A stretch of DNA of 64,000 nt, taken from an uncultured Treponemataceae bacterium (GTDB lineage: Bacteria > Spirochaetota > Spirochaetia > Treponematales > UBA12059). The notes under the pieces were generated by a model that had not been told where the DNA came from, did no database searches, and saw only the letters and a list, made by a program, of their open reading frames with translations. The position numbers and the translations under genes are program-made. This document shows positions 8,033 through 48,839 of the stretch, one piece after another. The stretch is from the NCBI GenBank assembly GCA_964485395.1, contig CAZAJF010000006.1, positions 41,195-105,194 on the forward strand. The letters are read 5' to 3'. Position 1 is the stretch's first letter; the number at the start of each line of letters is the position of its first letter.

Positions 8033-10030
8033 ATGTCCAATTTTATTTCTCGGTTTACCGCTTTGCTCTCAAGCGCGACGGGATCGACCGATATCGATGC
8101 CGCGGCATTGGAGGCTTTGCTTTTAGAATCGCCCGGCTTGATAAACCACATCGATGCTGACGGTAACAGCGCACTGCATTTGGCAGCGAATGCGCGGAAT
8201 CTCCGATGCGCGGAACTGCTTCTTGCTAATGGCGCGCTGGTGGATATCGCGGATCCCGACGGGCATACCGCGTCGTTCTACGCTGCCCTGAACGACGACT
8301 GCGCCATGCTGGAACTACTGGAACGAAACGGGGCGGATTTAGGCCGGACGGCCAGCTTCGGAGGAAGCCTCCTGCATTATGCGGCAATGTATTCCGGGGG
8401 AACAGCGATCCGCTGGCTGGCCGCGCGCGGGCTGGACGTCAACGGCCGGTCCATCAACGAGGAAACGCCGCTACAGTGGGCAATGTACCGCAGGAACCTT
8501 CGCGCGATCGACGTACTAGTGGAACTGGGAGCCGGTCTTCGCGGCGTTTCCGATATCTGGGGCAATACCGTGCTTACCGCGGCCATTCTCGCAGGGAGCC
8601 TGGAATGCACCGCAGCTCTCCTGGATCGCGGAGCCGATATCAACGAGCGCAGCCCGGAATTGGGCCGCACGCCGCTGCATGCCGCCGTAGGACCCGCGAA
8701 TCACCGCATCTCCCCCGATATCGTTGGCGTGCTTCTGGACCGGGGTGCCGCCCCGGACTCCGCCCTGGACGACGGAACTACCGCGCTCGCGTGGGCCTGT
8801 ACCGGCGAAGACCCGCGTATCGTAAAACTGCTTCTGGACCGTGGAGCCAAGGCCGATGATAGGCACACCCTGCATCCGGCTCTCCGGTCGGGCAACGACG
8901 AGATAATCGACATGATACTTACTGCGGCGGGCAAAGAAGCTCATGTTGACGATGCGGGAAAGACAGCGCTGCACCTGGCCTCGGAAAAGGGCAAGGCTTC
9001 GGTGGTTAAGGAATTATTGCTTCGCGGATTCAAAGTCGACGTACGCGATGCTTCCGGCATGACTCCGCTTCATTACGCGGCTGCAGGAGGCTTTCCCGAA
9101 ATTGCAGCAATTCTGCTGGATTCCGGCGCATCCATCGATGCGGCCGATGCGCAAGGCGTCACAGCGCTCGCCTATGCGGAAAAACACGGAAACCCGGCCG
9201 TCGCATCGATTCTATCTGGACGAGGAGCCAAGGCTCCTGCAAAAAAAGAGTCGGCAATTCCTCCGTTTACGGCTCCGGGAAGCTTGAAACGCGGAGAGGC
9301 GGTCGTTCGCTATCTGGGACATTCGGGATGGGCGGTGGAAACCGAGGCCAATATATTAATTTTCGATTACTGGAATGCGGGATCCGGAAACAACCCCGAT
9401 GCATCCATCGCAAACGGCCGGCTCGTCGCCGGGGAACTGGCCGGCCGCACGGTAACGATATTCGCAAGCATGGTGTTTCCTGATCATTTTGACCCCGGTA
9501 TCTTTACGCTGGCGGGCGAAGGTACGCAAATCGCCTACGTGTACGGCTTCGACCCGAACCGCAAGGATAACCCGTACCAGGGCCCGGCATACGTGGATAT
9601 CGGGCTTGGCAAGACCGCGCGTATCGGCGATATCGAAGTTACCACCTTAACCTCAACCGCGGGCGGCGCCGGATTCCTCGTGGTCGCGGATGGGCTCACG
9701 ATATTTCACGCCGGCGACCATACGAATCGCCGGGCAGACCTCTCGGGGCCTTTCAAGGCCGAAATCGACCTGCTGGCCCGCAGGAAATCCGGTATCGATA
9801 TAGCTTTTCTGCCTGTCGGAGGACCGGTGATGGCCGCCGAGCCGATCGTGTCCATAGGTTCGGACTATGCGATCAAAGCATTGAATCCGGCGATGGTTTT
9901 TCCGATGCACGAGGGCAGTCGGGAACATAAGTACTCCGGTTTCGCCGCGGCCATGCAACCCCGGCATCCGGGAGTCATTTTCTCGGCAGCGCGCAATCGG
10001 GGAGATTACTTTCGGTACAATCGTTCCTGA
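8033..10030 (+). CDS. Ankyrin-repeat protein fused to a metallo-beta-lactamase-fold domain
   Basis: 665 aa. About 11 ANK repeats precede a C-terminal domain (VRYLGHSGWAVE...IFHAGDH) typical of MBL-fold hydrolases. GGAGG sits upstream of the ATG. Confidence 0.75.
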   Translation: MSNFISRFTALLSSATGSTDIDAAALEALLLESPGLINHIDADGNSALHLAANARNLRCAELLLANGALVDIADPDGHTASFYAALNDDCAMLELLERNGADLGRTASFGGSLLHYAAMYSGGTAIRWLAARGLDVNGRSINEETPLQWAMYRRNLRAIDVLVELGAGLRGVSDIWGNTVLTAAILAGSLECTAALLDRGADINERSPELGRTPLHAAVGPANHRISPDIVGVLLDRGAAPDSALDDGTTALAWACTGEDPRIVKLLLDRGAKADDRHTLHPALRSGNDEIIDMILTAAGKEAHVDDAGKTALHLASEKGKASVVKELLLRGFKVDVRDASGMTPLHYAAAGGFPEIAAILLDSGASIDAADAQGVTALAYAEKHGNPAVASILSGRGAKAPAKKESAIPPFTAPGSLKRGEAVVRYLGHSGWAVETEANILIFDYWNAGSGNNPDASIANGRLVAGELAGRTVTIFASMVFPDHFDPGIFTLAGEGTQIAYVYGFDPNRKDNPYQGPAYVDIGLGKTARIGDIEVTTLTSTAGGAGFLVVADGLTIFHAGDHTNRRADLSGPFKAEIDLLARRKSGIDIAFLPVGGPVMAAEPIVSIGSDYAIKALNPAMVFPMHEGSREHKYSGFAAAMQPRHPGVIFSAARNRGDYFRYNRS

Positions 10031-23410: not shown

Positions 23411-23483
23411 CGCAGGGTAGAGCAGTTGGCAGCTCGTCGGGCTCATAACCCGGAGGCCGTAGGTTCGAGTCCTACCCCTGCTA
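23411..23483 (+). tRNA. tRNA-Met (CAT), initiator type
   Basis: Hand-folded cloverleaf: acceptor CGCAGGG/CCCTGC, D stem GAGC/GCTC, anticodon stem TCGGG/CCCGG with loop CTCATAA, T arm GTAGG-TTCGAGT-CCTAC. Three consecutive G:C pairs close the anticodon stem and the 1:72 pair is unpaired (C1xU72), both initiator hallmarks. CCA is not encoded. Confidence 0.85.
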
Positions 23484-23488
23484 GAAAT

Positions 23489-23524
23489 AAAGAACCGATC
23501 CGAAAGGGTCGGTTCTTTATTGTT
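23489..23524 (+). terminator. Rho-independent terminator after tRNA-Met
   Basis: AAAGAACCGATCC-GAAA-GGGTCGGTTCTTT followed by ATTGTT. Confidence 0.7.
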
Positions 23525-23720
23525 ATAATACTAAAAAAATCCTAGAAACCTGGAATCAGTCCTTCTACAAAAAATCAAATACATAAGTAATTATCCAGTT
23601 TTTTCTAAATTCCTATTCGGTATTTTTTTAAGCTGGACTACATGTTTGCATGCACCGATACGGAGAAGCTCGTGAATTGAAAAGTGTTTTCAGGCTATGC
23701 CTGGATTTGATGTGATCATA

Positions 23721-23770
23721 CGCCGCATGTAATCACGCGCTGAACTTGGGCCTTCTATCGTGTGAAGGTA
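23721..23770 (-). pseudogene. Decayed tRNA-Val 3' fragment (att-like scar 1)
   Basis: TGAACTTGGGCCTTCTATCGTGTGAAGGT matches TGAACCAGTGACTTCTACCGTGTGAAGGT of the intact tRNA-Val. It is preceded by the hairpin CGCCGCATGTAATCACGCGC. Confidence 0.65.
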
Positions 23771-23879
23771 AGTATATACCCTATATTTAGTTATATTCAT
23801 TTTTCGGCTTTTTCCGACATCTTACCGTGTTAACAAATTATGGTAATCTTTTTTCCGTTGTTCTTATATTCAATTTTTT

Positions 23880-24475
23880 CTATTTTCTGATTTTTTCTTA
23901 CATTTGCTCTCATTCCACATCACAAAATCAGGTATAGTGGCCACCAATGTCAAGACAGCCTTAACCGCCAAATCCTTATAAACCACAATCGGACATTTTG
24001 TAGTGTAGTGTTCAATATGCATCACTTTCCTGCAATGCCGTGTAGTACCATGCCGATCTACTGATATTTAGCCGTTCGCATTGCTCGCAATTGGGAGTGT
24101 CATGGCTTGAGCGTAGATCATTCGTCGACGCTGCTGGAATTGGTAATACCTTATTATTTTTTAAGCCAGTCGATCTTTACCGTGTGAAGCACAATTGTCT
24201 GAATGAGTTCATCTCTATCTTATTCAACTGCCTTGTCATGATTTGGCGCAGCGGTTGCAAATATATCTGAGCCGGTTTTCAAAGGCTGCTTTTCCCATTT
24301 GCCTACAAAGTCGGGATGAGCCTTAAACTGTTCTATGATTTAAAAAATGGTCTTGTCGTCCTTTATAGCTACAAGCACAATCTTGAATTTCTGCTCTTTG
24401 TTCCAGTAACCTTTTTTTTCACTCATACGGCGCCACTTAGAGGGCAGCTGCCACTATAGTATACTGTCCAGTTCA
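23880..24475 (-). pseudogene. IS3-family transposase remnant (OrfA plus start of OrfB, multiple stops)
   Basis: The minus-strand translation reads MSEKKGYWNKEQKFKIVLVAIKDDKTIF*IIEQFKAHPDFVGKWEKQ...VKIDWLKK... then ...CEQCERLNISRSAWYY. This matches the IS3 OrfA HTH, leucine zipper and OrfB N-terminus. A TG-initiated putative terminal repeat (TGTGAACTGGACAG) lies at ~24475. Confidence 0.6.
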
Positions 24476-25014: not shown

Positions 25015-26277
25015 ATGAATTCATTGAAATTTGAGACCTACTTCATGATGGAGCAGTATGTAAAAGAAAAGGTTGGCTTTTCCCCAAGTGCTGGTAAACC
25101 ATTATTGGTTGCTAAAGAGTTTCTAAAGCAATACAAAGACTATCTTGCCTGGAAAAAGTTTCCGCCCTTAACCGAGGCTGAAATTTCGGTTGCACATAAT
25201 CCCCGCTATGTGCATGGAATATTAGATTGTTCGATTGCAAACGGATTCAGCAACACTCTTGAATCGGTCGCAAAATCGTTACCATACACTACTGGCAGTT
25301 TCTATTATGCATCGTTATCTGCTCTAAAAAACAATTCAGTGACCATCTCGCTTACCTCTGGTTTTCATCATGCCTGTTATAATAATAGTGGTGGCTTCTG
25401 TACCTTCAATGCGCTCATGATCGCGTCAATTCTGCTTAAAAACAAAGGATTGCTTAAGAAAGAAGGTGTTGGAATCATTGATTTCGACATGCACTATGGC
25501 AATGGAACCGATGACATCATAAAGGAACTAAAAATCAGCTATGTTAAGCATCTTGGCACTGCAGATATAACGATCAAAGATGATGCTATTGATGAACCCG
25601 ATCTGTTAAAAAAACTTGAACCACTTAAGAAATGTGACATTTTATTTTATCAAGCAGGTGCGGATATTCATATTGACGATCCACTTGGCGGGAAACTGAC
25701 AACCGAGCAAATGAAACAGAGAGATAGGCTTATATTCCAATTTGCCAAAGATAATCAACTGCCTTTAGTGTGGAACCTTGCTGGCGGTTATCAAAAGCCT
25801 ATTGAAATTGTGATACAGCTACATGTGAACACTCTGAAAGAGTGTATAAATGTTTTTGAAGAGGGTCTCAGTAGGAATGGGACAATATCCTTAATTCAAG
25901 CTTCCAAGGTAAAAAAACAATTAGAACAATCATTCCCGCTAATAATCAGACTATTTCCCCCAAACATAATCTATATTGAGCCAACAGGATTTCTAGCGAC
26001 TGAAAATTTAGAAGTCCTTGATGATAAACTTATGCGAATAGATAATATCGAAAACTCAAATATTATTTTCAGCTTCAAAAATTTAAAATCTACGAGATCA
26101 AGTACAACTTGGGGATATCTATTTGACCTTACTAAGAACTTAGAGAAACGAAAAAAGAAGTTAATTCTTTGTGATATATTCCCATACCAATTAGAAGTAA
26201 TAAAAATGTTTGGATTTGAGTCAAAATTTGAAATTCATAATACTTGCAAAGAAGCAATAGAGGCAATAAATGGGTAG
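25015..26277 (+). CDS. Zn-dependent deacetylase (HDAC11-like layout) fused to a C-terminal STAS domain
   Basis: 420 aa, with AAGGAG upstream. The catalytic motifs are SGFHHA..GGFCTFN, IIDFDMHYGNGT, YQAGADIHIDDPLGG and LAGGYQK. The C-terminal ~120 aa has a STAS pattern (PTGFL..ENLEVLDDKL...KKLILCDIFPYQLEVIKMFGFESKFEIHNTCKEAIEAI). Confidence 0.8.
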   Translation: MNSLKFETYFMMEQYVKEKVGFSPSAGKPLLVAKEFLKQYKDYLAWKKFPPLTEAEISVAHNPRYVHGILDCSIANGFSNTLESVAKSLPYTTGSFYYASLSALKNNSVTISLTSGFHHACYNNSGGFCTFNALMIASILLKNKGLLKKEGVGIIDFDMHYGNGTDDIIKELKISYVKHLGTADITIKDDAIDEPDLLKKLEPLKKCDILFYQAGADIHIDDPLGGKLTTEQMKQRDRLIFQFAKDNQLPLVWNLAGGYQKPIEIVIQLHVNTLKECINVFEEGLSRNGTISLIQASKVKKQLEQSFPLIIRLFPPNIIYIEPTGFLATENLEVLDDKLMRIDNIENSNIIFSFKNLKSTRSSTTWGYLFDLTKNLEKRKKKLILCDIFPYQLEVIKMFGFESKFEIHNTCKEAIEAING

Positions 26278-26512
26278 TTTAAATCATGTCAATTTAAAGG
26301 AATTACCACATACCGCTTTGGTAGAAATCGAGTACAGTGATCCAGTATTTACTGACAAAAAATTATTGAAGCTCATTGAAACAGATTCCATGGGTTCAAC
26401 TTATGAATCTAATAACGGAGACAAGTCACATCCGGGCTGGCTCTGTCCTGTTTTCTTTTGGAATTTTCAAAAATCTCCAGAACTACTTGATGCAAGAATG
26501 GCAAAAGTATAA
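26270..26512 (+). CDS. Small protein of the WLCPV(F/L)F motif family (short paralogue)
   Basis: 80 aa ending in GSTYESNNGDKSHPGWLCPVFFWNFQKSPELL. It overlaps the upstream gene by 8 nt and the downstream gene by 1 nt (TAATG). Confidence 0.65.
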   Translation: MGSLNHVNLKELPHTALVEIEYSDPVFTDKKLLKLIETDSMGSTYESNNGDKSHPGWLCPVFFWNFQKSPELLDARMAKV

Positions 26513-27318
26513 TGAAAATATTATTCTCAAGTGACTTACATGGCGAAATAGATGCATATAAGAAATTTTCCAAACTTCTAAAATCGTATGACTGTGGTGT
26601 TTTAGCTGGGGACTTGATGGATGAAATGATCTCGCTAAGAGATGCGGAAAGCTATGGGTTAATAAATCCAGAAGAGCCGGAAGAATTACTTGGGGCAGAG
26701 GAAAATGACTTAGATGTATTCACTAAGCGATATCATGACTCATTGCACGACGTAAACTCCGTAAATAGAAAAGGGTTGGAAATAAAGAAAAATATAATAA
26801 TTGATATTTTAAATCACTCAAAAAAACCCATATTTTATATAACTGGAAATCACGATATTGCGAATTGGATAGATCAAGGGAATTTATTAAATATTGAGTT
26901 AAAAAAAGTAATATTTATGAATACATCCTTTGTTGGATACAGCCCTACTAACCTTAGATCACCTGAATCAGAACAACGATCCTTTCTTGCAAATCTTATT
27001 CCATTAGTGGATAAAAATACAATATTGGTTTCCCATTCACCTCCATATGGGATTTTAGATACAAATATGTCAAACGAGAACATCGGCAGCAGAGCACTAA
27101 GGGATTTTATTAAACAAACCAATCCAATGATAAATTTATTTGGCCATGTGCATGAAAGATTCGGACGCACCGGGAACTTTATTAACGGCAGTTGGTTTTT
27201 AAGCAAAAAATTCGTCTCAATCAATACAACTACAAGTAGGATAAGATATATAAATGCAAATAATATATTTTTCAACAATAACATTACTAATAAAAATGCC
27301 ACAAAGAAAAGATCATGA
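26512..27318 (+). CDS. Calcineurin-like metallophosphoesterase
   Basis: Motifs SDLHG, AGDL, ITGNHD, SHSPP and FGHVHE. It is a close paralogue of 43509..44279. Confidence 0.85.
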   Translation: MKILFSSDLHGEIDAYKKFSKLLKSYDCGVLAGDLMDEMISLRDAESYGLINPEEPEELLGAEENDLDVFTKRYHDSLHDVNSVNRKGLEIKKNIIIDILNHSKKPIFYITGNHDIANWIDQGNLLNIELKKVIFMNTSFVGYSPTNLRSPESEQRSFLANLIPLVDKNTILVSHSPPYGILDTNMSNENIGSRALRDFIKQTNPMINLFGHVHERFGRTGNFINGSWFLSKKFVSINTTTSRIRYINANNIFFNNNITNKNATKKRS

Positions 27319-27527
27319 TAATTTGTAAAAATCGACAAAACCACATGCCCCTCCGGGAAATTAACCAGTCATCTTTCCAAGACATAGTATCAAATATATA
27401 TAGGCATTGCAGCGATACTATTACAAAGGAAGCATTATACGAAACCTTAAAAGATAAAGTCAAAATTGATCTAATAATATGGAGGTCAAACATTTATGAA
27501 ACAAAACAAAGCTTTCTATTTCCATGA
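27315..27527 (+). CDS. Hypothetical small protein
   Basis: 70-aa ORF with an ATGA overlap to the upstream stop. It overlaps the next gene by 32 nt, and no motif was recognised. It may be spurious. Confidence 0.3.
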   Translation: MIICKNRQNHMPLREINQSSFQDIVSNIYRHCSDTITKEALYETLKDKVKIDLIIWRSNIYETKQSFLFP

Positions 27528-28500
27528 AGAAGTATTCAGTTTATCGATACCAGAAGAAAAAATTGAGTTTATTGGTCGATCTCTTCCGCATTTTCGAAAC
27601 ATTGCCCATCAGCTCTCAAAAAACTATACCATGCATAATCTTAGTCTTAGACGTGAAAATATTTCCGAATATCTAAGAGTACACAGTAAAGATTATCTTG
27701 ATTCTATACTTATGAAGCAAGCTGGTGAGAATGTATCACTAAAAATAAACTGCGAATGTTCAGGTCTGGAATACGCCATTCCCGGATTTGAATATACCCT
27801 CGGTGGTTTATATCAAGCCATAGATTTTGTCAAACAAGATTACAACAGCAGAGTATTTTGTTCAACACTACCCGGACACCATTCATATGCAGATCATGGA
27901 CATGGGTACTGTTTATTAAACCCAATGTCCGTCGCTGTTAGAAAAGCACAACAGGAGGGTTTTAAGAATATCCTAATCATTGATTGGGATTTACATCATG
28001 GCGATGGAACGCAAAGTATTTTTGCCTATGATAATTCTGTATATCAGATTAGTATCCATAGTGCCATAGACTTGTATATGAGCATGATGCGAATCTGGGA
28101 GCAAGGAACCACAGAGTTTGCACAAAGCATCGGGCATTGCAATATTCCTGTTCTTGATGCTTTGTATGATGAAAAGTTTATTAAAGAAGTTGAGTTCAAG
28201 GGGGAGTATTATAGAGCAGATAGTTGCAAGGAGCAATTTTCCAAAAAACTTAATAATTTGCCATTTAAGCCAGAATTGATTTTTATTTTCTCAGGCTTTG
28301 ATTCACATATTGATGATTGTGGTAAAAATATCACCGACTGGACTGATTTTGATTATGAATTGCTGACAAAGGCTGTTGTAGATATCGCTAAAAAGCATAA
28401 CTGTCCTATAATTTCGACCACAGGCGGAGGATATAATGTCGCATCAAGCCTAAGTGCCGCAAAGCACCATATTAATACCTTAATGAACTATAAGGCGTAA
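27496..28500 (+). CDS. Histone-deacetylase-family Zn-dependent deacetylase (class II / acetylpolyamine amidohydrolase-like)
   Basis: Motifs PGHHSYADHGHGYCLLN, IIDWDLHHGDGTQ, GFDSHIDD and TGGGYN. GGAGG lies upstream. Confidence 0.85.
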   Translation: MKQNKAFYFHEEVFSLSIPEEKIEFIGRSLPHFRNIAHQLSKNYTMHNLSLRRENISEYLRVHSKDYLDSILMKQAGENVSLKINCECSGLEYAIPGFEYTLGGLYQAIDFVKQDYNSRVFCSTLPGHHSYADHGHGYCLLNPMSVAVRKAQQEGFKNILIIDWDLHHGDGTQSIFAYDNSVYQISIHSAIDLYMSMMRIWEQGTTEFAQSIGHCNIPVLDALYDEKFIKEVEFKGEYYRADSCKEQFSKKLNNLPFKPELIFIFSGFDSHIDDCGKNITDWTDFDYELLTKAVVDIAKKHNCPIISTTGGGYNVASSLSAAKHHINTLMNYKA

Positions 28501-28596: not shown

Positions 28597-29670
28597 ATGG
28601 ATAGAATAAGTGGGTGTATTTTTGGAGGTGCTGTAGGTGATGCTTTAGGCGCACCTCTTGAATTTTATAAAAAATATGACATCTCCACACTTTTCGGCAT
28701 TGATAAAGTAATTAAGAATATATTAGTAAAGCACCCTCAATTAGAAATTACCGATGATACTCAGATGTCGTTATATACCATGGAAGGCTTAAATAGAGAT
28801 TATTCTATTAAAAATATGCTGCATTCCTACCATAGATGGCTAGTAACCCAAAAGCACATTTTTAATCAGACTGAGAATTCAATCTATAACAATCTATCAA
28901 CAGAGGAAATAGCTAAGATAATATCAAATAGTAGTTTGATTAAATCTAAAAAACTATACAAAATTCGTTCTCCCGGAAACACCTGTTTAGAGGCACTATC
29001 GACTGGCAGGATTCAAACAGTTGAATTGATATTAAATGATAGTAAAGGTTGCGGGGGTGTGATGCGAGTTGCACCAGTCGGTTTCTTTTTTAATGATGCA
29101 AATTCGGTATACATAAACGCTTGCGATATTGCTTTATTAACACATGGACATCCTTCTGGATATATACCCGCTGGTATTTTAGCAACTATTATTTATTATA
29201 TTAATAACAATGAATCTTTGGTGGGGAGCATCACAAAAGCTATGGATATAGCCTACACGCACAATGGAGATGAAACCAAAGAATCTTTTTATTGCATTAC
29301 TAGTGCGATAAAACTAGCACTTAAGGGTAAAGTTAATTCAAGGGAAACTGAAGATTCCATTAGATCGGTATATTCAGAAAACAATGCAAAGTATTATACT
29401 CCAAAATCAAGAGGAATTGGATGGATTGCTCCTGAAGCCTTAGCATACGCGATATATTGTTCGTTAATTTATAATGGCGATTTTTTAAACTCTATCGAAA
29501 CTGCAATCAATCATTCAGGAGACAGCGATAGTATTGGTGCTATATGTGGAAATATATTAGGGGCATACTTGGGACGAGAGAATATTAATTGTGAACATAT
29601 AATAAATGTCATTGATGAAAAGGACATTATAGAATCCTCAATCAAACTATTTAAGCAAGAATTAAAATAA
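28597..29670 (+). CDS. ADP-ribosylglycohydrolase (ARH/DraG family)
   Basis: Motifs GGAVGDALGAPLEF, ITDDTQMSLYT, GNTCLEAL and HSGDSDSIGAICGNILGAYLG. Confidence 0.85.
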   Translation: MDRISGCIFGGAVGDALGAPLEFYKKYDISTLFGIDKVIKNILVKHPQLEITDDTQMSLYTMEGLNRDYSIKNMLHSYHRWLVTQKHIFNQTENSIYNNLSTEEIAKIISNSSLIKSKKLYKIRSPGNTCLEALSTGRIQTVELILNDSKGCGGVMRVAPVGFFFNDANSVYINACDIALLTHGHPSGYIPAGILATIIYYINNNESLVGSITKAMDIAYTHNGDETKESFYCITSAIKLALKGKVNSRETEDSIRSVYSENNAKYYTPKSRGIGWIAPEALAYAIYCSLIYNGDFLNSIETAINHSGDSDSIGAICGNILGAYLGRENINCEHIINVIDEKDIIESSIKLFKQELK

Positions 29671-29784: not shown

Positions 29785-29871
29785 ATGACTAAATCCTTTA
29801 GACTCGTAAAAATCAAGAATACCAGGGGGCAATCTACAAGTAAATTAACTCTATCTGAAAGCATTGAATAG
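29785..29871 (+). pseudogene. Truncated duplicate of the 5' end of the gene at 30756
   Basis: MTKSFRLVKIKN... compares with MAKSFKLVKIKK.... The first ~45 nt are about 80% identical, then the sequences diverge and a stop follows. Confidence 0.4.
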
Positions 29872-30755: not shown

Positions 30756-31130
30756 ATGGCTAAATCCTTCAAACTTGTTAAAATCAAGAAAATCATGTGG
30801 GCAACTTACAAGGAAATTAACACTACCCCATGGTATAAAGATCGAAACCAAGATTTTTTCATGATTTCATTTTTTGACATTCTCAACTCCTTTTATCCAG
30901 AAAATGCCCATGTTGTTAATTTAACTATATCAGATGAAGCCATATCCGATTACGATTTGAAGTTAACAAAGTCTACAGGCAATATATATGTCGACGAAGA
31001 TAATAAATCACATACCATGAGTGAAAGAGAATTAATGAAGTTTTTGGGAACAGTTCCACCTGTTATGTACATTGCCGTTCAATTAGATTCAAGAGGCAAG
31101 AAATTAACCGAAAAAATAATAGAGAAATAA
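30756..31130 (+). CDS. Hypothetical protein
   Basis: 124 aa with AGGAG upstream. The stop is 2 nt before the next ATG. Confidence 0.5.
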   Translation: MAKSFKLVKIKKIMWATYKEINTTPWYKDRNQDFFMISFFDILNSFYPENAHVVNLTISDEAISDYDLKLTKSTGNIYVDEDNKSHTMSERELMKFLGTVPPVMYIAVQLDSRGKKLTEKIIEK

Positions 31131-31723: not shown

Positions 31724-31859
31724 AGAAGAATAGGTATCGTTACGAATTAAAGATGAAATTATTGTGGTAGAAAAAATTATTGATTTCTTAAAATTGCATG
31801 ATTGCTTTAAGTAGTGTAATAACTGAACTAAGGGATCAATATTTGACAGGAGGTTGAAT

Positions 31860-32573
31860 ATGTATAATAACATTATCATCTTAACAGGAGCCGGTGTCTC
31901 TAAAGCATCTGGTGTCAGAACCTTTAGAGGGACTGGAGGACTCTGGAATGATCCAGAAAATGAAAAATATTCTAAAAGCGAGCTATTCAAACAAGAGCCC
32001 TTGTTGATTTGGCAGTTTTTTGGAAAAATGAGAAAAGAAATCCAAAATGTAAAACCAAATGATGCTCATTATGCATTAGCAAAACTGGAAAATCATGCTC
32101 CTTCAAATTTTTTATTGCTTACTCAAAATATAGATGGGCTACATCAAAAAGCAGGAAGTAAAAATCTTATTGAACTACATGGCAATATTTTTACTACAAA
32201 GTGTTCAAATCCAGAGTGTAATTTTAAAAAACCTGAAGATTATGACACATACGAAGAACACATTCCTATATGTGGCTTATGTGGATCAAATTTAAGACCT
32301 GCAATTGTATTATTTGGAGAATATTTAGATACTTTTAATGAGCATCGAACTAAGGTTGCACTAAGAGATTGTGATTTATTTGTTTCAGTTGGAACATCTG
32401 GGACGGTAGCTCCAGCTTCTAATTTTGTCAGAGGTGCAGAATATGCAGGGGCTGAAACCATATTTATCAATACAGAACCTACAGATAATACATATTTTCA
32501 AAAACAGATTATCGGAAATGCAGAAGATGTATTGCCAAAATTTGTATTGGAAATCACAAAACAGGAGGTATAA
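31860..32573 (+). CDS. cobB: Sir2-family NAD-dependent protein deacylase (CobB-like sirtuin)
   Basis: Motifs GAGVSKASGVRTFRG.GGLW, TQNIDGLH and the catalytic ELHGN. The Zn ribbon is CSNPEC...CGLCGS, followed by VGTSGTV. AGGAGG lies 6 nt before the ATG at 31860. Confidence 0.85.
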   Translation: MYNNIIILTGAGVSKASGVRTFRGTGGLWNDPENEKYSKSELFKQEPLLIWQFFGKMRKEIQNVKPNDAHYALAKLENHAPSNFLLLTQNIDGLHQKAGSKNLIELHGNIFTTKCSNPECNFKKPEDYDTYEEHIPICGLCGSNLRPAIVLFGEYLDTFNEHRTKVALRDCDLFVSVGTSGTVAPASNFVRGAEYAGAETIFINTEPTDNTYFQKQIIGNAEDVLPKFVLEITKQEV

Positions 32574-32580
32574 TAGCTAT

Positions 32581-33426
32581 ATGAAAGTGTTTTACAACAA
32601 TAATCAAGTCGCTATATACAATACAGGAAATTTCTGTAGAAATTCAGAAAAACCAATGCTTCTTGTTAAGGCACTTCTAAGCAATCCTTCAATTCAAATA
32701 ATCTCCGATTGGAATCCACTAACTCCCGAGGAGATTTCTGTTTCTCATGACAGAAAGCATGTTGACAGTATTCTAAATTACACAGAGAATAATGGATATG
32801 GCAACACCGATATGCAACTTACCGATGCAACTCCTTGGGAGTTGGAGAGTTTCTATCATGCAGCGTGTGAAGCTTTTGTTTCAAAAACTGTTACATTGTC
32901 ACCTTCTGCGGGATTCCATCATGCAGATTATTATGAAAGCTGGAATTTCTGTACCTTTAATGGACTGACTATCACAGCGATTTTGCTTAAAAATGAGTTT
33001 AATCCGGATAAAATTGGTATAATTGATTTTGATTGTCATTGGGGAAATGGAACGGATTCAATTATTGAAAAATTAAATTTATCATATGTAACCCATTACA
33101 CATTTGGTAAATTCAAAAGAATCATTCGAAAAGGCATTGGGTTTGACCAGTGGCTGGCTGATTTACCAGCAATACTTGAAGATAAATTTTCAAGTTCCGA
33201 TATTATCTTCTACCAAGCCGGGGCGGATGCACATATAGATGACCACTTTGGCGGCGAACTTTCCACAGAGCAAATGATACTTCGTGATAAAATTGTTTTT
33301 GAATTTGCAAAAAGTAGCAATATTCCACTAGTATGGAATTTAGCGGGAGGTTATCAAGAACCTTTAGATAAGGTGATACTATTACATCTGAACACGCTTA
33401 AAGAATGTATTGCCGTTTTTGAGTAA
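32581..33426 (+). CDS. Zn-dependent deacetylase (HDAC11-like layout), paralogue of the 25015 N-terminal domain
   Basis: Motifs AGFHHA, IIDFDCHWGNGT, YQAGADAHIDDHFGG and LAGGYQE. ATG at 32581 is 7 nt after the sirtuin stop, so the ORF-track start at 32425 is rejected. Confidence 0.8.
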   Translation: MKVFYNNNQVAIYNTGNFCRNSEKPMLLVKALLSNPSIQIISDWNPLTPEEISVSHDRKHVDSILNYTENNGYGNTDMQLTDATPWELESFYHAACEAFVSKTVTLSPSAGFHHADYYESWNFCTFNGLTITAILLKNEFNPDKIGIIDFDCHWGNGTDSIIEKLNLSYVTHYTFGKFKRIIRKGIGFDQWLADLPAILEDKFSSSDIIFYQAGADAHIDDHFGGELSTEQMILRDKIVFEFAKSSNIPLVWNLAGGYQEPLDKVILLHLNTLKECIAVFE

Positions 33427-34503: not shown

Positions 34504-35166
34504 TCACTCCTCTTCCTCGATCACAAGCAACTCCTCAATATCAGCTTCCAATTCTTTTCTTATACCAGCCCAATCATATTCTATTCCTTGTGAAACGCTT
34601 GAAGCCAAATAAACCATCTCTGGAAGCACCAAAGCTGTTAGATATCCTCCGCTACCACACCCAGTATTGATATTGATCCTATTTCCACATACAACAGGCT
34701 CGCTAACAATCATGTGACCGTGAATTACAGTTTTATTAGTTATACTGTAGTAATTATTGTCATAGCGAGTCCATAAATAATCAAATTCCGTTTGTTGATC
34801 CAAGGGTTTTGAGACATCTAATCCTGCGTGTACAAAAATATATTTTCCGGCCGAATAAACAGGAAATAGCGAATTGTTGATCCAAGAGAATGATTCTTTG
34901 GATATCTTCGCCATACCCAGCAACTTATCTAAATCATCTGGATTATGTCTTGCTCTATTTAATAGCATTTCCTCATGATTTCCCTTTAAGCAAATTGCGT
35001 TGAGTGAAGCGACTTTTTTACAGACATATTCTGCATCAGTGCCACGATCAATATAATCACCCAAAAAAACAAAACTATGTGTAGGATATGTTTTTGCTTT
35101 TTCGAGTATTTCGTCGAGTTGTTTTTGACATCCATGAATATCACCTATTGCGATTATATTGTGCAT
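34504..35166 (-). CDS. PPP-family Ser/Thr phosphatase / ApaH-like metallophosphoesterase
   Basis: Motifs GDIHG, GDYIDRG, GNHE, VHAG and HGHM. Confidence 0.85.
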   Translation of the reverse strand: MHNIIAIGDIHGCQKQLDEILEKAKTYPTHSFVFLGDYIDRGTDAEYVCKKVASLNAICLKGNHEEMLLNRARHNPDDLDKLLGMAKISKESFSWINNSLFPVYSAGKYIFVHAGLDVSKPLDQQTEFDYLWTRYDNNYYSITNKTVIHGHMIVSEPVVCGNRININTGCGSGGYLTALVLPEMVYLASSVSQGIEYDWAGIRKELEADIEELLVIEEEE

Positions 35167-35204: not shown

Positions 35205-35975
35205 TCAATAATTGCAGTAAATCAATTTATTTTCCGCTATCTTATAAGACACCTTATGTATACCGCTTATCAAGCTACAGTCCAGTCCCTCGGTTGTATG
35301 AAATATCGAATGTTTAATGGACAGCGAGTCACAAATGTTTTTAATTACACTATTACTATCTTCAAATACATTCTTCCTGTTTACCGCATCACCATCATCA
35401 TATTGATAAGCATAATGTCCATAAGTAATAAATATTGCCATTTTTACTTTTCTATCTATTTTTCTAATTATTTCATATAACCATTCTTTATTATTTGAAT
35501 TCTCGAAAAATAAACCTATAAAAACAAAATCATTAAAATATAGAATTTTGTTATAAATGTTTCTTAAATTACTTGATACTTGATCTGGTAGATTTATCTT
35601 TGAATTTAAAAAGAAAAGTATATTTCTATTTGAAGCTGTAAATATTGTTAATATTTCATTAAGTTTATGTTCAAATATAACTCCTAAATATTTACAATAA
35701 CCAATAGCTATTTCATCATATCCAATGGACTGCACAAGAAAAAGACCAGTTGCAAGATTTCTATCCTGCTTAAAAATTTCTGCATTAACCATATAATTTC
35801 TAATATACGAACGAGCTTCGTTTGTATCAAATATTTTATGGTTGCTAACATCCAAAAAATCATGCACGTTTCCAGAAATTATCCCAATATCAATATTTTT
35901 TACAGCCAAGGCATTTGCAAAGGAAGTATATCTTGCAATTTCACCTTTAAATGACGAGCCAAATAACACTTTCAC
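35205..35975 (-). CDS. Degenerate metallophosphoesterase paralogue (metal ligands lost)
   Basis: The N-terminus MKVLFGSSFKGEIARYTSFANAL aligns with MKILFSSDLHGEIDAYKKFSKLL. However DxHG, GD, GNHD and GHxH are all replaced (SSFKG, SGN, no GNHD, FHTTEG). GTG start with AGAGGTG upstream. Confidence 0.6.
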   Translation of the reverse strand: MKVLFGSSFKGEIARYTSFANALAVKNIDIGIISGNVHDFLDVSNHKIFDTNEARSYIRNYMVNAEIFKQDRNLATGLFLVQSIGYDEIAIGYCKYLGVIFEHKLNEILTIFTASNRNILFFLNSKINLPDQVSSNLRNIYNKILYFNDFVFIGLFFENSNNKEWLYEIIRKIDRKVKMAIFITYGHYAYQYDDGDAVNRKNVFEDSNSVIKNICDSLSIKHSIFHTTEGLDCSLISGIHKVSYKIAENKLIYCNY

Positions 35976-39029: not shown

Positions 39030-39794
39030 ATGCGTATATTATTCGGATCAGATTTTCATGGAAATATCAAAGCATATCAACGATTCGCTGAATTAGTAGA
39101 AAATGCTGATTTCGGAATTCTAGGAGGAGATTTGAATACTGGTTTCACACCAGACGAATTTGAACAAATAAGAGAAAAGTATGGCATTGAAGACGATGAT
39201 CTAATTGAAGAATTACATTCGGAATTCGATTACTTACCAATAAGCCCTAATAGCAAATTAAATAAAGCATTCAAGGAGAAGGAAAAAGAATATAAAGAAA
39301 TATTAAAAAAACCAAATAAGAAAATCTATTTCATTATGGGTAATGATGATGGTATTGTAGGTGGCGCATGGGATGAAGATGAAATATTTAGTAATGTAAA
39401 CATGAAGCGGATTGACATTGGTATGGTAAACATTGTTGGCTACCAATATACACTACCATTTGTTGGTGGTCTTTTTGAAAAACGAGAAGAAGAACAGCAA
39501 AAAGATATGAGTAATATTTGGAATCTTGTTGATGAGTCAACAATTTTCGTATCACATGGTCCAGCTTATAAAGAAAATGATATGTTGCATAATGGCTTAA
39601 CTGGGAACCTAAATCGAATAGGTGGCAAGGCTTTAAGAGGATTAATTTCTGAAAGAAAGCCAAGATACCATCTATATGGACATTACCATCAGAAATATGG
39701 CATTAGAAAAAACTCCATAAATGGCTCATATCCAATATCAAGAAAATTCATCATGATTGATCTGGAAAAATCAATAGCGAAATGGCTAAGTTAG
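39030..39794 (+). CDS. Calcineurin-like metallophosphoesterase
   Basis: Motifs SDFHG, GGDL, GNDD (variant of GNHD), SHGP and YGHYHQ. Confidence 0.8.
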   Translation: MRILFGSDFHGNIKAYQRFAELVENADFGILGGDLNTGFTPDEFEQIREKYGIEDDDLIEELHSEFDYLPISPNSKLNKAFKEKEKEYKEILKKPNKKIYFIMGNDDGIVGGAWDEDEIFSNVNMKRIDIGMVNIVGYQYTLPFVGGLFEKREEEQQKDMSNIWNLVDESTIFVSHGPAYKENDMLHNGLTGNLNRIGGKALRGLISERKPRYHLYGHYHQKYGIRKNSINGSYPISRKFIMIDLEKSIAKWLS

Positions 39795-39932: not shown

Positions 39933-40783
39933 ATGAAATCTGAGTTCGATAAAAACTATAATACTATAATGCTAAACGCCAACTACTTAAATAACAAAAT
40001 TGCTGAAACTAATTATTTTGGGGAAGAAAATAAAATTTTCCTAAAACTTACGAATACTAATCATGATTTTATTGATTTCGAAATTATTTTTCATATAATA
40101 CACGATTTATTTGGAACAAAGTCAATCTAGCTTTTTGGAAGAGCATAAATGAGATTCAGAAAAATTTAGAAAAAAATATTGGGAAATCGATTAGTAAAAG
40201 TATTGTAATAATTGAATACTATACCGATAAAAAGAAATCAAAGAGTTTAATTTTGAAAATCAAGCGTCTTTATGACCTAATAATCGAATCAAAATCTGGA
40301 AAAGACTTTCTGACTTGATTCTACAATAATAGGAAACTGGATACTGTTCTTAGGTTAGAAAACGATCGTTTCAATATTTACAATGTCAAATTCCATTTGA
40401 TGATATTGGATATTAAGCGATTAATAATAATTAATGATTTAGAGGGACATGCATTTGGGGATAAGCTCATTATCAAAATTAGTATTATAATTAAGGAGTT
40501 ATGCTCAAATATTGATTACATATTTAGATATGGCGGAGATGAGTTTGTCATACTAATTCCCCATAAAGAGGAATCTCAGGTTAAGGAAATGGCTGAAAAA
40601 ATCCTTGAAAAGGTAAGAAAATTATCGACAGCCCAATATGGAGTAGCATTAAGTATAGGAATTTCAAACACAAATGAAAAAACAAAGAATCTTACCGAAC
40701 TTTTAGAAAGAGCAGATATTGCAATATACACTGCAAGCAATAAAGCCACTATGAGTAATGGAATTATAGAGTGGGCATTTTAG
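39933..40783 (+). pseudogene. GGDEF-domain (diguanylate cyclase) gene disrupted by a frameshift and an in-frame TGA
   Basis: The open part 40397..40783 carries NDLEGHAFGDKL and RYGGDEFVIL. Upstream in the same frame, KDFLT*FYNNRKL replaces the D.LTGL.NRR motif, with TGA at 40316 at the Gly position. Further upstream the frame switches to ORF 39933..40130. Confidence 0.65.
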
Positions 40784-41864: not shown

Positions 41865-42296
41865 ATGAATATGGTAAACTACAAGATTCTAAGAATCAGA
41901 ATGCGTATTCGAAGGGCATTATCTTCTATAATCCCTTTCCTTGCAAAGACGACAAAAATATTCAAGAAACCAATAGTGAAAGCATATAAGGATTCTGAAG
42001 GTTGGTTTATTTCTGATTCAAATGGATTTTCCAAAGCTCAAAACCAACTTATTGGAGGAGTTCCCGAGCTTATCGAACACTTTGTTGGCGCTTCGACTAA
42101 GATAATGATTAAATATAGCTCAGTAAAATTTCAAGATGCCATTACCTGTGATCTGATTGAAACCAGACCAAGTGGTTCAACGTATCGATATCACGAGGGC
42201 AATGTTGACTATAAATTTTGGCTTTGCCCTGTCTTCTTTTGGTATTTCAAGAATCCTCCGAAAACTCTATTTGTGTTAATAGTTGACGACTGCTAG
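41865..42296 (+). CDS. WLCPV(F/L)F motif family protein
   Basis: 143 aa with EGWFISDSNGF...GGVPELIEHFV...GSTYRYHEGNVDYKFWLCPVFFWYFKNPPKTLFV. Confidence 0.65.
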   Translation: MNMVNYKILRIRMRIRRALSSIIPFLAKTTKIFKKPIVKAYKDSEGWFISDSNGFSKAQNQLIGGVPELIEHFVGASTKIMIKYSSVKFQDAITCDLIETRPSGSTYRYHEGNVDYKFWLCPVFFWYFKNPPKTLFVLIVDDC

Positions 42297-42471: not shown

Positions 42472-42849
42472 ATGACTGAAAATAAATACAGTTTAAAATG
42501 CATTACCACTGCTTATAAACTGATCAATCATCCAGAAATTGCCTTGTTAAAGATAGTAGGTTCATTAGACTTATTTTCTAAAGGAAACTGGTTTAGCAGA
42601 ATCGAAAAACTAAGCAAAGTTGGCTATAAAAAAATTATACTCGATTGCAATGAAACTTTTGTTTACGATCATATTGATCCATTTTTCACTAACCTTAAAT
42701 TTCCTAAAGATAGCAATCTTTGTTTTGTTATTTATGCCAAAAAAGAATCGACAATAGTCAAGAATTACTATGATGGGATTCTTGGTGGAATGTTAAATTT
42801 CGTACTTGGATCAATGCAAGAGTGCATAGGTTACTTAAATAAATACTAA
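42472..42849 (+). CDS. STAS-like single-domain protein (tentative)
   Basis: 125 aa. LLKIVGSLDLFS...GYKKIILDCNETFVYDHID...LCFVIY...SMQECIGYL follows the SpoIIAA/STAS pattern only loosely. Confidence 0.4.
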   Translation: MTENKYSLKCITTAYKLINHPEIALLKIVGSLDLFSKGNWFSRIEKLSKVGYKKIILDCNETFVYDHIDPFFTNLKFPKDSNLCFVIYAKKESTIVKNYYDGILGGMLNFVLGSMQECIGYLNKY

Positions 42850-43508: not shown

Positions 43509-44279
43509 ATGAAAATCTTATTCACAACCGACATCCATGGTGATATGGAGACATATCAAGCCTTCTCAGAAAAATTGAAGGACTTCGACATTGGTATCAT
43601 TGCTGGTGACTTGATGGAAGAATTCCTGTCACCTAATGATGCTATCGCATTTGGCTTGAAAGACAAAGAACTAATCGAAGAATTGCATGGCGAGGAATTT
43701 GACGAAGTTGTTGAAATGGATAAAGCCATAAAAAATGCACTCCATAACAAGAATTCAACAAATAGAAAAGGATTGGAAATTAAGAGAAAAAAAATAATAG
43801 AGACTCTCGAAATCGCACAGCGACCAATATACTACATTCGCGGTAACCATGATATTGCCGATTGGGGTGATACAAAATATATAAAAAATATTGAAAACAA
43901 GAAAATAGATTTAGGAACAATAAGTCTATTTGGTTTGAAAGAAGATTTTAGATTGGCAGTAAGCCAATTTAGGTATTCAAGTAAAATAGCAAATTGCATT
44001 GATAAGGGTACAATTTTAGTTTGTCATTCTCCACCATATAAAATAATGGATATTACGAAAATGGTGCGAAGGAGGGATCATAAAGTAGTCCTTACACATG
44101 TTGGAAGTAAAAATATTCTTAAAATAGTAAACAAAAAGCATCCCCTGTTTTGCCTTTGCGGTCATGTACACCAAGGAATAGGTATTAACGGTAACATCAT
44201 TAATGGGGGATGTTACAGGCATAAGAAATTTGCAAGCATCGATACAGAAAAAAGCAAAGCAGAATTTATCAACTGGTAA
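43509..44279 (+). CDS. Calcineurin-like metallophosphoesterase
   Basis: Motifs TDIHG, AGDL, RGNHD, CHSPP and CGHVHQ. It shares the insert ...NSTNRKGLEIKRKKII... with 26512..27318. Confidence 0.85.
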   Translation: MKILFTTDIHGDMETYQAFSEKLKDFDIGIIAGDLMEEFLSPNDAIAFGLKDKELIEELHGEEFDEVVEMDKAIKNALHNKNSTNRKGLEIKRKKIIETLEIAQRPIYYIRGNHDIADWGDTKYIKNIENKKIDLGTISLFGLKEDFRLAVSQFRYSSKIANCIDKGTILVCHSPPYKIMDITKMVRRRDHKVVLTHVGSKNILKIVNKKHPLFCLCGHVHQGIGINGNIINGGCYRHKKFASIDTEKSKAEFINW

Positions 44280-44599
44280 GGCTTTAAGATTGTCCTAAGA
44301 TTGGCATTAACTGAAAATAGTTATGTTACGATTATTTACTTTTGTTTTCTTAATTCATACTAAAGCAGCTTTGATGTTAAAATTATATATGGCAGGCTTG
44401 ATCAATCAATGGTAATATAAAAACAAAAAATGTTTTAGTATTACCCAAGAATGGTGCTTTTACAGATTCTGTTTTTTCTTAGTTGTGTAGATCAGCAAAA
44501 TTCATATCCAAAACAATAATGGGTGATACACTATCAGTTTGAATAGTCATTTATGAATTGATTGAATTAGTGTTGGATTGAACTATATATGAGGTGCAT

Positions 44600-45340
44600 A
44601 TGTCCATATTTGCTATTGGTGATATTCATGGATGTTTTGACTTATTAGATAAAGGGTTTGAAGTAATCAAAAACCGCGCATCTCTAAATGATAAAATAGT
44701 CCTCCTAGGGGACATAATTGATTCTGGCAGTGATACAAAAAAGTGTATCGATCTAATACTTGAAATGAGTCAAAAATATGAAGTAATCGCAGTCAAGGGA
44801 AATCATGAAGAATGGATGCTACAAACAAAAGATGATTATACCAGTCACTCATGGATAATTAGTATGGATGGATTAAAAACCATTAAAAGCTATTCTGAAA
44901 GTGTAGAAGAAGAATTGAAAAGTGAATTAAAAGCAAATGGAATTGCAATAGTAAATGATCACGTACCAATATCGTATGATAAATTTTTCAAGGTGTTACC
45001 AAAAGCACATTTGGATTTCATAGAAAACATGAGAGACTATTACATTGAAGGAAACTACATATTCGTTCACGCAGGGATATCAACAGAATATAAAGATCTT
45101 GACAAAATGGATAGGCACAACATGAGATGGGGATTTGAAGGATTTCCGGAAAAATACCACGGAAATAAAATAGTTGTATATGGTCACTGGAGCAATAAAG
45201 CAGTAATAAACGGCAACCAAGTGATTACATATCAATCCAATAACACTATCTGTATAGACACCCAAAAACATAACGTGCTTACAATATTTATAGCTCCAGA
45301 AAATAAAATAGTGCAAATTACGCCTAAAAAGCAAATCTAA
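44600..45340 (+). CDS. PPP-family Ser/Thr phosphatase-like metallophosphoesterase
   Basis: Motifs GDIHG, GDIIDSG (Arg of DRG replaced), GNHE, VHAG and YGHW. ATG at 44600 follows GAGG. Confidence 0.8.
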   Translation: MSIFAIGDIHGCFDLLDKGFEVIKNRASLNDKIVLLGDIIDSGSDTKKCIDLILEMSQKYEVIAVKGNHEEWMLQTKDDYTSHSWIISMDGLKTIKSYSESVEEELKSELKANGIAIVNDHVPISYDKFFKVLPKAHLDFIENMRDYYIEGNYIFVHAGISTEYKDLDKMDRHNMRWGFEGFPEKYHGNKIVVYGHWSNKAVINGNQVITYQSNNTICIDTQKHNVLTIFIAPENKIVQITPKKQI

Positions 45341-48804: not shown

Positions 48805-48839
48805 TCACGAAGCAGTTTAAAACTATGCATGCTTTTTAT

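Follow-up and report, generated by a model that had tools for sequence, protein, structure and literature searches.

A predicted class IV deacylase-STAS fusion, linked to a DUF6717 gene and a metallophosphoesterase, in a genomic island of an uncultured Treponemataceae bacterium

Introduction

The closest described relatives of the locus discussed here are the partner-switching systems of the SpoIIAA/RsbV type, in which a standalone STAS protein is combined with a GHKL kinase/anti-sigma factor and a PP2C phosphatase (SpoIIE or RsbU), the latter holding the place of the resetting enzyme (PMC8256260). In the SulP/SLC26 transporters, the LOV-STAS protein YtvA and the stressosome component RsbR, STAS makes up the C-terminus of a protein whose primary function lies in its N-terminal part, and the domain has been proposed to accommodate nucleoside triphosphates (review PMC8256260). 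Here, we analyse a stretch of 64,000 nucleotides from an uncultured Treponemataceae bacterium (GenBank assembly GCA_964485395.1, contig CAZAJF010000006.1, positions 41,195 to 105,194; hereafter "the window", to whose first letter all coordinates refer), in which a predicted STAS domain is fused to a histone deacetylase (HDAC) and the fusion gene is followed by genes for a small DUF6717 protein and a metallophosphoesterase (MPE).

To our knowledge, STAS switches are known almost solely in combination with PP2C phosphatases and GHKL kinases, and the regulation of bacterial lysine deacylases is poorly understood. On the deacylase side, the nearest described enzymes are the HDAC11-like bacterial deacylases (cluster 5, Graf et al. 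2024, PMC11532494; clade B, PMC13325672). HDAC11 carries the motifs GGGFHH and SGGY, VcHdaH carries SGGYHH and GGGY (PMC11532494), and a Phe gatekeeper is a feature of clade B class IV HDACs (PMC13325672). Two further comparisons bear on the locus, namely Tri1, an immunity enzyme that reverses ADP-ribosylation, including that by non-cognate toxins (PMC11606950), and PDC-S10, a candidate single-gene phage-defence metallophosphoesterase family of PADLOC with a putative function and no curated threshold.

Results and discussion

The three genes lie on the plus strand and comprise the HDAC-STAS fusion (gene 1, 25015-26277, 420 aa), a truncated DUF6717 gene (gene 2, 26270-26512, 80 aa) and the MPE gene (gene 3, 26512-27318, 268 aa). 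An earlier reading of the window from its letters and open reading frames (ORFs) alone, here called the sequence-only reading, had placed these ORFs and their overlaps correctly: the stop codon of gene 1 (TAG, 26275-26277) and the start codon of gene 2 (ATG, 26270) create an overlap of 8 nt, and the stop of gene 2 and the start of gene 3 have one base in common (TAATG, 26510-26514). While a strong AAGGAG Shine-Dalgarno sequence lies 5' of the gene 1 start, gene 3 is without a ribosome-binding site of its own and dependent on the TAATG junction. Scans for promoters and terminators returned no more matches than expected by chance. Overlapping starts and stops are frequent in compact operons, so that the coupling is by itself unremarkable. 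The neighbours recur as a unit elsewhere (see below). An assembly or frameshift artefact can be dismissed as the origin of the fusion, since one Logan assembly (SRR13723393, locus L014) is 100% identical to window positions 25462-26582, the HDAC/STAS junction included, and a second (SRR13723394, locus L013) is 100% identical to positions 25657-27349. The two are independent assemblies of different sequencing runs, and gene 2 is called identically in both.

Residues 1-284 of the fusion (25015-25866, plus strand) correspond to a class IV (HDAC11-like) Zn-dependent lysine deacylase domain (Pfam Hist_deacetyl, E = 2.6e-25). Its catalytic motifs are intact, with the tandem His in GFHHA at residue 116, the Asp-x-His metal ligands in DFDMHYGNGT at 156, the third Asp ligand in GADIHIDDPLG at 215 and the catalytic Tyr in AGGYQ at 256. 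These motifs align with those of the nearest solved relatives (9gkv, 9gz5 and 9rje), all of them "histone deacetylase" chains of ~305-320 aa. The class IV signature is present as SGFHH (in place of the RPP motif) and AGGY. Together with the ~285-aa core and the Phe gatekeeper, this signature likens the domain to the HDAC11-like bacterial deacylases introduced above, from which the window protein differs in its additional C-terminal STAS. At the motif level, the description of this part as a catalytically complete, HDAC11-like deacetylase thus holds.

The remainder of the protein (residues ~285-420; 25867-26277, plus strand) consists of a linker and a STAS core at residues ~304-419. Its match to Pfam STAS (PF01740) is marginal, at 23.6 bits against a gathering score of 22.6, and covers residues 316-414 and profile positions 8-106 of 106; the NCBIfam profile ant_ant_sig scored 17.2 bits, far below its cut-off. 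An AlphaFold2 (AF2) model of the fusion, computed from the single sequence, had an overall pLDDT of 42 and a poor HDAC part, yet gave the STAS domain (pLDDT 58-87) a β-β-α-β-α-β-α-α topology with strands at residues 309-314, 318-323, 349-353 and 382-386 and helices at 329-340, 363-378, 390-398 and 411-419. When this domain was compared with the PDB in Foldseek, each of the top 19 matches was a bacterial STAS protein of the standalone kind, either an anti-sigma antagonist or RsbS. The best of them (RsbV, SpoIIAA, RsbS and TM1442) reached target-normalised TM scores of 0.80-0.84 at a root-mean-square deviation (RMSD) of 2.2-2.5 Å across the full length of the target and E ~1e-6. When 1.84 billion representative proteins were searched exhaustively by phmmer with the STAS domain as query, 12 weak matches emerged at E ≤ 1e-3. 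Nine of the ten that were scanned with Pfam are standalone proteins of 105-183 aa with STAS E-values of 1e-10 to 1e-21, and the tenth, the top match P0121, has no Pfam match but has a TTRS motif in common with the window protein. By profile, relatives and modelled fold, the C-terminal domain is a genuine, divergent STAS domain, as the sequence-only reading had proposed in suggesting a structural comparison with SpoIIAA/RsbV.

The loop preceding helix 2 of this domain bears the motif KSTRSSTTWG at residue 358 (F-K-N-L-K-S-T-R-S-S-T-T-W in the alignment). Within it, Ser362 falls in the alignment column of the SSG-loop serine of canonical STAS proteins, the residue that in SpoIIAA is the phospho-serine Ser58. 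The variant TTRS..W is common to the three nearest STAS relatives (P0121, P0122 and P0128). GC content drops from 38.5% in the HDAC part to 31.2% in the linker/STAS part.

The sequence-only reading had asked whether the fusion and its neighbours exist elsewhere, and the answer differs for the two. As to the fusion, STAS is absent from all 119 other proteins among the best 120 of 3739 HDAC homologues (the window protein being one of the 120). These are ~270-365 aa in length; 110 of them have ≤300 aa, and the nine longer ones gave no match to a STAS hidden Markov model (HMM), the four sequences inspected having acidic or charged low-complexity tails. The closest among these best 120 (P0002, 285 aa) is 81% identical and ends where the window linker begins. 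In a scan of one genome per species, the best match to the HDAC was a Treponematales metagenome-assembled genome (MAG) at 63% identity, and nothing was found past residue 291 even with two of the search patterns taken from the STAS domain. No fusion was found by a word-indexed search with the STAS domain, nor was any of the 12 phmmer relatives attached to an HDAC. All these searches covered relatives of this HDAC and this STAS, HDACs with an unrelated canonical STAS lying outside their scope. Nor does STAS feature in two surveys that deal with bacterial HDACs and class IV HDACs (PMC11532494, PMC13325672). From these comparisons, the HDAC-STAS fusion looks unique to this organism and like a new architecture. 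Beside the homologue P0003, an HDAC(287 aa)-HDAC(328 aa) pair was seen.

The neighbourhood, on the other hand, recurs. An alignment of the three paralogues of the gene 3 subfamily in the window served as query for metagenomic contigs, and the flanks of the matches were searched with custom HMMs; most of the comparison loci are short contigs. A same-strand STAS ORF lies directly upstream of the MPE in 5 of the 15 closest relatives (L023, L025, L030, L035 and L037) as opposed to none of 37 distant ones (Fisher p = 0.0012), or in 3 of 13 (p = 0.015) if L025, L030 and L037, which come from one lineage, are counted once. The order is STAS→DUF6717→DUF6717→MPE in L035, as in the window, and STAS→MPE in the other four. 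The STAS proteins of L025/L037 and L035 match Pfam STAS at E ~1e-20 and have a canonical YISS[ST]GIG motif and a helical tail of ~50 aa. In L023, where the MPE is 62% identical to that of the window, the ORF overlapping the MPE start by 4 nt is weakly STAS-like (Pfam STAS E = 0.019, below threshold; custom HMM E = 1.3e-4). In addition, an MPE gene of the subfamily is followed in L022, a contig of a high-GC organism, by a DUF6717 gene that is 68% identical, with an overlap of 4 nt, and at 3725-4327 of L078 (part of the IMG/VR contig IMGVR_UViG_3300025715_000009, 388 kb, 30% GC) a 62-aa C-terminal remnant of a class IV HDAC, 59-70% identical to the HDACs of the window's island, is separated by 9 nt from a full-length DUF6717 gene. 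A parallel to the fusion itself is offered by L075 (ENA ERZ21878204, 40.7 kb), which holds P0121, the nearest relative of the window STAS. P0121 joins a TTRS-type STAS to an unrelated domain at its N-terminus, and the low-GC, same-strand array in which it lies also includes a STAS-less paralogue of that N-terminal domain as well as a subfamily MPE. This pattern resembles the HDAC-STAS fusion and the STAS-less HDAC at ~32581 in the window.

Judged by these comparisons, STAS, DUF6717 and the MPE subfamily form a loosely conserved mobile module that occurs in varying orders on unrelated metagenomic and viral contigs. The STAS-(DUF6717)-MPE neighbourhood appears to be the more general finding than the fusion and to be undescribed; in the literature searched, "STAS domain" and "metallophosphoesterase" were not combined. 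Further linkages were noted for other gene families found in the window's island. In two Thiobacillus/Thiobacillaceae MAGs (L008 and L009), an ADP-ribosylglycohydrolase (ARH) gene lies ~1 kb upstream of a class IV-type HDAC gene, echoing the window, and in L036 an ARH gene is linked to an MPE gene and a Fic-like gene (recognised by eye from the N-terminal sequence of the ORF). Relatives of the HDAC, DUF6717 and TTRS-type STAS genes repeatedly have Imm5_like immunity genes as neighbours. As side observations, L075 also encodes two near-identical Imm5_like proteins, CN_hydrolase, a PIN toxin-antitoxin pair, CHASE2 and DUF6602, L037 has a large ankyrin-repeat protein upstream of its STAS-MPE pair, and in L078, whose contig is very large for a phage, HicA/HicB-like and RNA-ligase-like genes were seen by eye close by.

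The "WLCPV protein" of the sequence-only reading, gene 2, is present as described, and its profile and motif matches identify it as an N-terminally truncated member of DUF6717. It matches Pfam DUF6717 (PF20475) at 25.2 bits, below the cut-off of 27, over profile positions 48-108 of 115, matches a custom HMM of the family at E = 3.4e-21, retains the invariant WLCP motif and is 45% identical to the C-terminal half of a paralogue at 41865. Given that a TAA directly precedes the ATG of gene 2, no upstream extension is possible, and the copy may be degenerate. A full-length DUF6717 protein was modelled by AF2 from a 44-sequence alignment (pLDDT 86.7, pTM 0.74) as a small β-rich domain. The model found no significant match in the PDB (best E = 0.076, with a faint OB/TOBE/Rpb8-like likeness) but matched two uncharacterised phage proteins in BFVD (best TMt 0.83, RMSD 2.0 Å), and the family is common on phage contigs, with 27 loci on viral contigs in our set. 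DUF6717 had no mention in the literature searched. In two unrelated contigs, DUF6717 genes adjoin radical SAM genes (L015, 91-809; L022, 492-2173), the DUF6717 gene of L015 being present as a tandem duplicate.

Gene 3 is, as had been read from the sequence, a metallophosphoesterase of non-PP2C type. It matches Pfam Metallophos (PF00149) at E = 2.4e-10 and has all five metal-binding motifs (DLHG at residue 8, GDLMD at 33, GNHD at 112, SHSPP at 174 and GHVHE at 211), and it represents a distinct subfamily of the calcineurin-like metallophosphoesterases. The signature of the PPP protein phosphatases (GDxHG/GDxVDRG/GNHE) is not found in the protein, which instead reads SDLHGE, GDLMDE and GNHD. It also matches the PADLOC HMM of PDC-S10 at E = 1.6e-18, over profile positions 64-198 of 223 only. 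All three subfamily paralogues of the island match this HMM (E = 1e-14 to 1e-18), but the matches are partial (about positions 57-198 of 223), the island proteins have an insert of ~70 residues between motifs II and III, and they are linked to STAS and DUF6717. The parts of the system come from known families; by their profile and motif matches, the STAS, class IV HDAC and calcineurin-like MPE parts are members of theirs.

How does the unit compare with classical partner switching? It resembles the SpoIIAA/RsbV systems in the superposition of the STAS fold, in the placement of Ser362 at Ser58 and in the tight linkage of a hydrolase gene (as RsbU to RsbV). It differs in that the STAS is no standalone protein but part of an enzyme fusion, that the linked hydrolase is a calcineurin-like MPE, that the serine loop reads TRSS instead of DSSG, and that an adjacent kinase or PP2C is lacking. 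We sought an adjacent GHKL kinase and PP2C and found neither, so that the unit is not a canonical partner-switching system. No HATPase_c domain was detected in any island ORF scanned, and SpoIIAB/RsbW seeds, which were approximate sequences and whose negative outcome for the island is only suggestive, matched in the host backbone only. There, ~36 kb from the unit, a 308-aa protein (62573-63499, minus strand) combines a CBS pair with HATPase_c/HATPase_c_2 and has no HisKA, an RsbW-like architecture that makes it a candidate STAS serine kinase. The backbone also uses STAS as a C-terminal module, in a 787-aa ankyrin-STAS protein (4131-6494, minus strand) with many ankyrin repeats and a STAS domain (Pfam, 23.3 bits) at residues 651-732. 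In having a C-terminal STAS behind an N-terminal primary function, the fusion is like the SulP/SLC26 transporters, YtvA and RsbR, which are among its Foldseek matches, yet its N-terminal partner is a Zn-dependent lysine deacylase. Ser362 occupies the position of the phosphorylatable serine, no kinase or PP2C was found in the island and the MPE has diesterase-like motifs, so that phosphorylation-controlled partner switching is no more than plausible for the unit.

What the sequence-only reading overlooked is the genomic context. The unit occupies the left end of an island that spans ~25 kb, has ~32% GC against ~57% GC in the backbone and also holds paralogues of all these families. Direct repeats of ~305 bp bound the island, the left (23467-23770) beginning in the 3' end of a tRNA-Met (23411-23483) and the right (48503-48815) followed by tRNA-Val fragments and an intact tRNA-Val (48934-49008, minus strand). 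The repeats are spaced by 25,035 bp and are identical in 91% of pairwise columns and in 94% over a core of 280 nt (direct-repeat families D1 and D10 on the left, D2 and D15 on the right). The island is thus horizontally acquired and inserted at tRNA-Met. It encodes three HDAC-family proteins (25015, 27496 and ~32581), one CobB-like sirtuin (31854), one ARH (28597), seven metallophosphoesterase-fold ORFs, three of which belong to the subfamily in question (26512, 39030 and 43509), three DUF6717 proteins (26270, 41865 and 45392), as well as a GGDEF fragment, a CPBP protease and an HNH protein. As the paralogues of these families are just 30-46% identical to each other, they are old and not recent duplicates.

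Taken together, we tentatively favour, at somewhat less than an even chance, the explanation that a mobile STAS-DUF6717-MPE switch module captured an HDAC, whose activity would be gated by STAS and reset by the MPE. Such a module would have contributed the STAS gene, with which an HDAC gene of the ~285-aa standalone family became fused. For this capture speak the end of P0002 right at the junction, the step in GC content at this position and the fact that the STAS of P0121 is likewise fused. The STAS would then serve as a C-terminal switch or docking domain whose state depends on Ser362 or on the binding of a phospho-ligand or nucleotide, and this state would gate the activity or the partner choice of the attached deacylase. 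The MPE would be the resetting hydrolase in place of the PP2C of classical partner switching, and DUF6717 an accessory adaptor. A kinase, if there is one, would be encoded elsewhere than in the island, the CBS-HATPase_c protein of the host backbone (62573-63499) being a candidate.

Several points weigh against this explanation. Neither a GHKL serine kinase nor a PP2C is found in the island or beside any STAS-MPE pair examined. The MPE may not act on phospho-serine at all, as its motifs are not of the PPP type and its weak matches are to the phosphodiesterases MPPED2 (the nearest solved) and YfcE. The serine loop departs from the canonical sequence, and the STAS model stems from the single-sequence AF2 run with the modest confidence given above. 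The DUF6717 copy of the unit is without the first two strands and one helix of its fold. About two thirds of the close MPE relatives have no upstream STAS, and MPE, STAS and HDAC neighbours are lacking for most DUF6717 genes, among them the 27 on viral contigs, which makes the association a facultative one. Finally, the fusion is a singleton, so that selection for the fused state is unproven.

Should the favoured explanation be true, the removal of acyl groups from lysine would be coupled to a phospho- or nucleotide-dependent switch, and a new hydrolase class would enter partner-switching biology. The recurrent STAS-DUF6717-MPE neighbourhood provides the first functional context for the phage-associated DUF6717 and a context also for PDC-S10-like phosphoesterases. 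A bolder version, which we regard as doubtful, sees in the module an undescribed, mobile partner-switch-like cassette that uses an MPE in lieu of a PP2C, fuses to varied effectors, an HDAC in the window and an uncharacterised domain in P0121, and gates an arsenal of modification-erasing enzymes (deacylases, an ADP-ribosylhydrolase and phosphoesterases) against damage by toxins or phages. As a singleton from an uncultured organism, the fusion is of limited general importance unless a function of the module is shown.

The alternative that survives best, though we hold it to be rather unlikely, is that of an accidental fusion with incidental linkage, in which a small deletion or stop loss joined HDAC and STAS genes within a compact, shuffled island, without regulation of the deacylase. 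Beyond the singleton status of the fusion, the very observations that suggest capture, namely the 81%-identical homologue that stops at the junction and the drop in GC there, fit such an accident as well. The DUF6717 copy, devoid of the N-terminal third of its fold, could be a decaying remnant, and the island holds further decayed items, including the truncated GGDEF, an MPE-like ORF without motifs I and II and transposase remnants noted by eye. Besides, genes unrelated to each other are mixed in the related arrays of L021, L075 and the P0004 context. However, the ORF is intact, with complete catalytic and STAS core features, and identical in three assemblies. STAS-MPE, STAS-DUF6717-MPE, MPE-DUF6717 and HDAC-DUF6717 adjacencies with start/stop overlaps recur in unrelated contigs, for which chance is an unlikely cause, and P0121 follows a like design in which one of two paralogues gets the STAS.

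Less credible to us is a nucleotide-signal module, in which the MPE as a diesterase would degrade a (cyclic) nucleotide or remove a nucleotidyl adduct, the STAS would sense this ligand, and both would make up a phage-defence or counter-defence device controlling the deacylase. The PDC-S10 matches of the three MPE paralogues, the diesterase-like motifs and weak matches to MPPED2 and YfcE, the proposed accommodation of nucleoside triphosphates by STAS (PMC8256260), the 27 viral DUF6717 loci with the fold matches to two phage proteins, and the GGDEF fragment in the island would all agree with it. Yet neither a cyclase nor an effector of known signalling defence was found and PADLOC gave no other matches, PDC-S10 is a mere candidate family that is matched in part, and the MPE-linked STAS proteins retain the canonical phosphorylatable serine motif.

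We give similarly little credence to the idea of an enzymatic-immunity island whose "eraser" enzymes reverse toxin modifications, as Tri1 does, with STAS and DUF6717 as toxin-binding or adaptor parts. The island is an unusually dense set of protein-modification-removing enzymes and as such a candidate for enzymatic immunity or counter-defence. It has three HDACs, one sirtuin, one ARH (with weak matches to Tri1 and DraG), six MPE/PPP proteins plus one inactive-looking MPE-like protein and the CPBP protease, and it resembles the Tri1 type in that its ARH stands alongside other modification-removing enzymes. Precedent exists in Tri1, which acts against non-cognate toxins as well (PMC11606950). 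The recurrence of Imm5_like genes beside HDAC, DUF6717 and TTRS-type STAS relatives, the ARH-HDAC linkage in Thiobacillus and the ARH-MPE-Fic-like linkage of L036 point in the same direction, but these associations rest on co-occurrence in short contigs. In contrast to Tri1-type immunity, neither a cognate toxin nor a toxin-binding N-terminal domain was identified in the island, where no toxin, secretion-system or Imm-family gene was detected. HDAC or MPE immunity proteins are not known to counter any acetyltransferase or kinase toxin.

Further features of the island and its surroundings

Downstream of the unit, the same-strand string continues, so that it reads HDAC-STAS, truncated DUF6717, MPE, a 70-aa ORF, a second HDAC and the ARH. 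The 70-aa ORF (27315-27527, plus strand), taken from the ORF list, overlaps the MPE stop (ATGA), matches no Pfam family and is an uncertain gene. The second HDAC-family deacylase (27496-28500, plus strand, 334 aa; Hist_deacetyl E = 8.3e-46) has a GGAGG Shine-Dalgarno upstream and is probably part of one transcription unit with the three genes. The ARH gene (28597-29670, plus strand) matches Pfam ADP_ribosyl_GH at E = 4.5e-57; its NCBIfam matches to DraG and Tri1 are weak and far below the equivalog cut-offs.

More deacylases follow in the form of the CobB-like sirtuin (31854-32573, plus strand) and a class IV HDAC paralogue without STAS (32581-33426, plus strand) that shares 46% identity with the HDAC part of the fusion. 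The paralogue probably starts 8 nt 3' of the sirtuin gene, which puts an NAD-dependent and a Zn-dependent deacylase in tandem. The remaining metallophosphoesterase-fold ORFs include a smaller Metallophos_2-type enzyme at 31133 and two PPP-type (λ-phosphatase/NinI-like) phosphatases at 34504-35166 (minus strand) and 44594-45340 (plus strand), both with GDIHGC…GD(Y/I)IDxG…GNHE and a match to the NinI-like PHROG 246 (E = 1e-37 to 1e-39). In an MPE-like paralogue at 35205-35975 (minus strand), motifs I and II are lost, with SSFKGE in place of SDLHGE and GN in place of GD, and the protein is probably catalytically dead. The two other members of the gene 3 subfamily are located at 39030-39794 (plus strand; 30% identical to the MPE at 26512; PDC-S10 E = 5.4e-17) and 43509-44279 (plus strand; 42% identical; PDC-S10 E = 1.9e-14).

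A second group of genes (DUF6717, possibly STAS-like, transmembrane, MPE) starts with the full-length DUF6717 paralogue at 41865-42296 (plus strand, 143 aa; Pfam E = 5e-14; AF2 pLDDT 86.7). Its candidate STAS-like member, a 125-aa protein (42472-42849, plus strand), has a sub-threshold, partial Pfam STAS match (E = 0.0066) and no match to the custom STAS HMM; another candidate STAS ORF lies at 46849. The third DUF6717 paralogue (45392-45922, plus strand) is situated between the PPP/NinI-like phosphatase of 44594-45340 and the CPBP protease (46030-46767). The GGDEF fragment (40397-40783, plus strand, 128 aa) starts at profile position 36 and looks like a truncated diguanylate cyclase.

As for the nature of the island, no integrase, phage structural gene or toxin was detected in it. 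It can be dismissed as an integron cassette array (no attC-like repeat family is present in it), as a prophage (no structural or replication genes were seen, and PHROG matches are to generic enzymes only) and as a known defence system (PADLOC returned just PDC-S10 for the MPEs and a weak HNH match).

A few minor observations complete the picture. A gene start is duplicated within the island (29785-29829 and 30756-30800, 80% identity), which suggests that the copy at 29785 is a frameshifted paralogue of the 124-aa ORF at 30756; the latter weakly matches the custom DUF6717 HMM (E = 2.6e-5). Incomplete sequences resembling tRNA-Val occur repeatedly, at 48759, 48855 and 48936. At ~23870-24440 (minus strand), stop-interrupted frames look by eye like OrfA of an IS3-type transposase (e.g. 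MSEKKGYWNKEQKFKIVLV). Lastly, an ankyrin-repeat protein at 8033-10030 (plus strand) is fused to a metallo-β-lactamase-fold domain (Lactamase_B_3).

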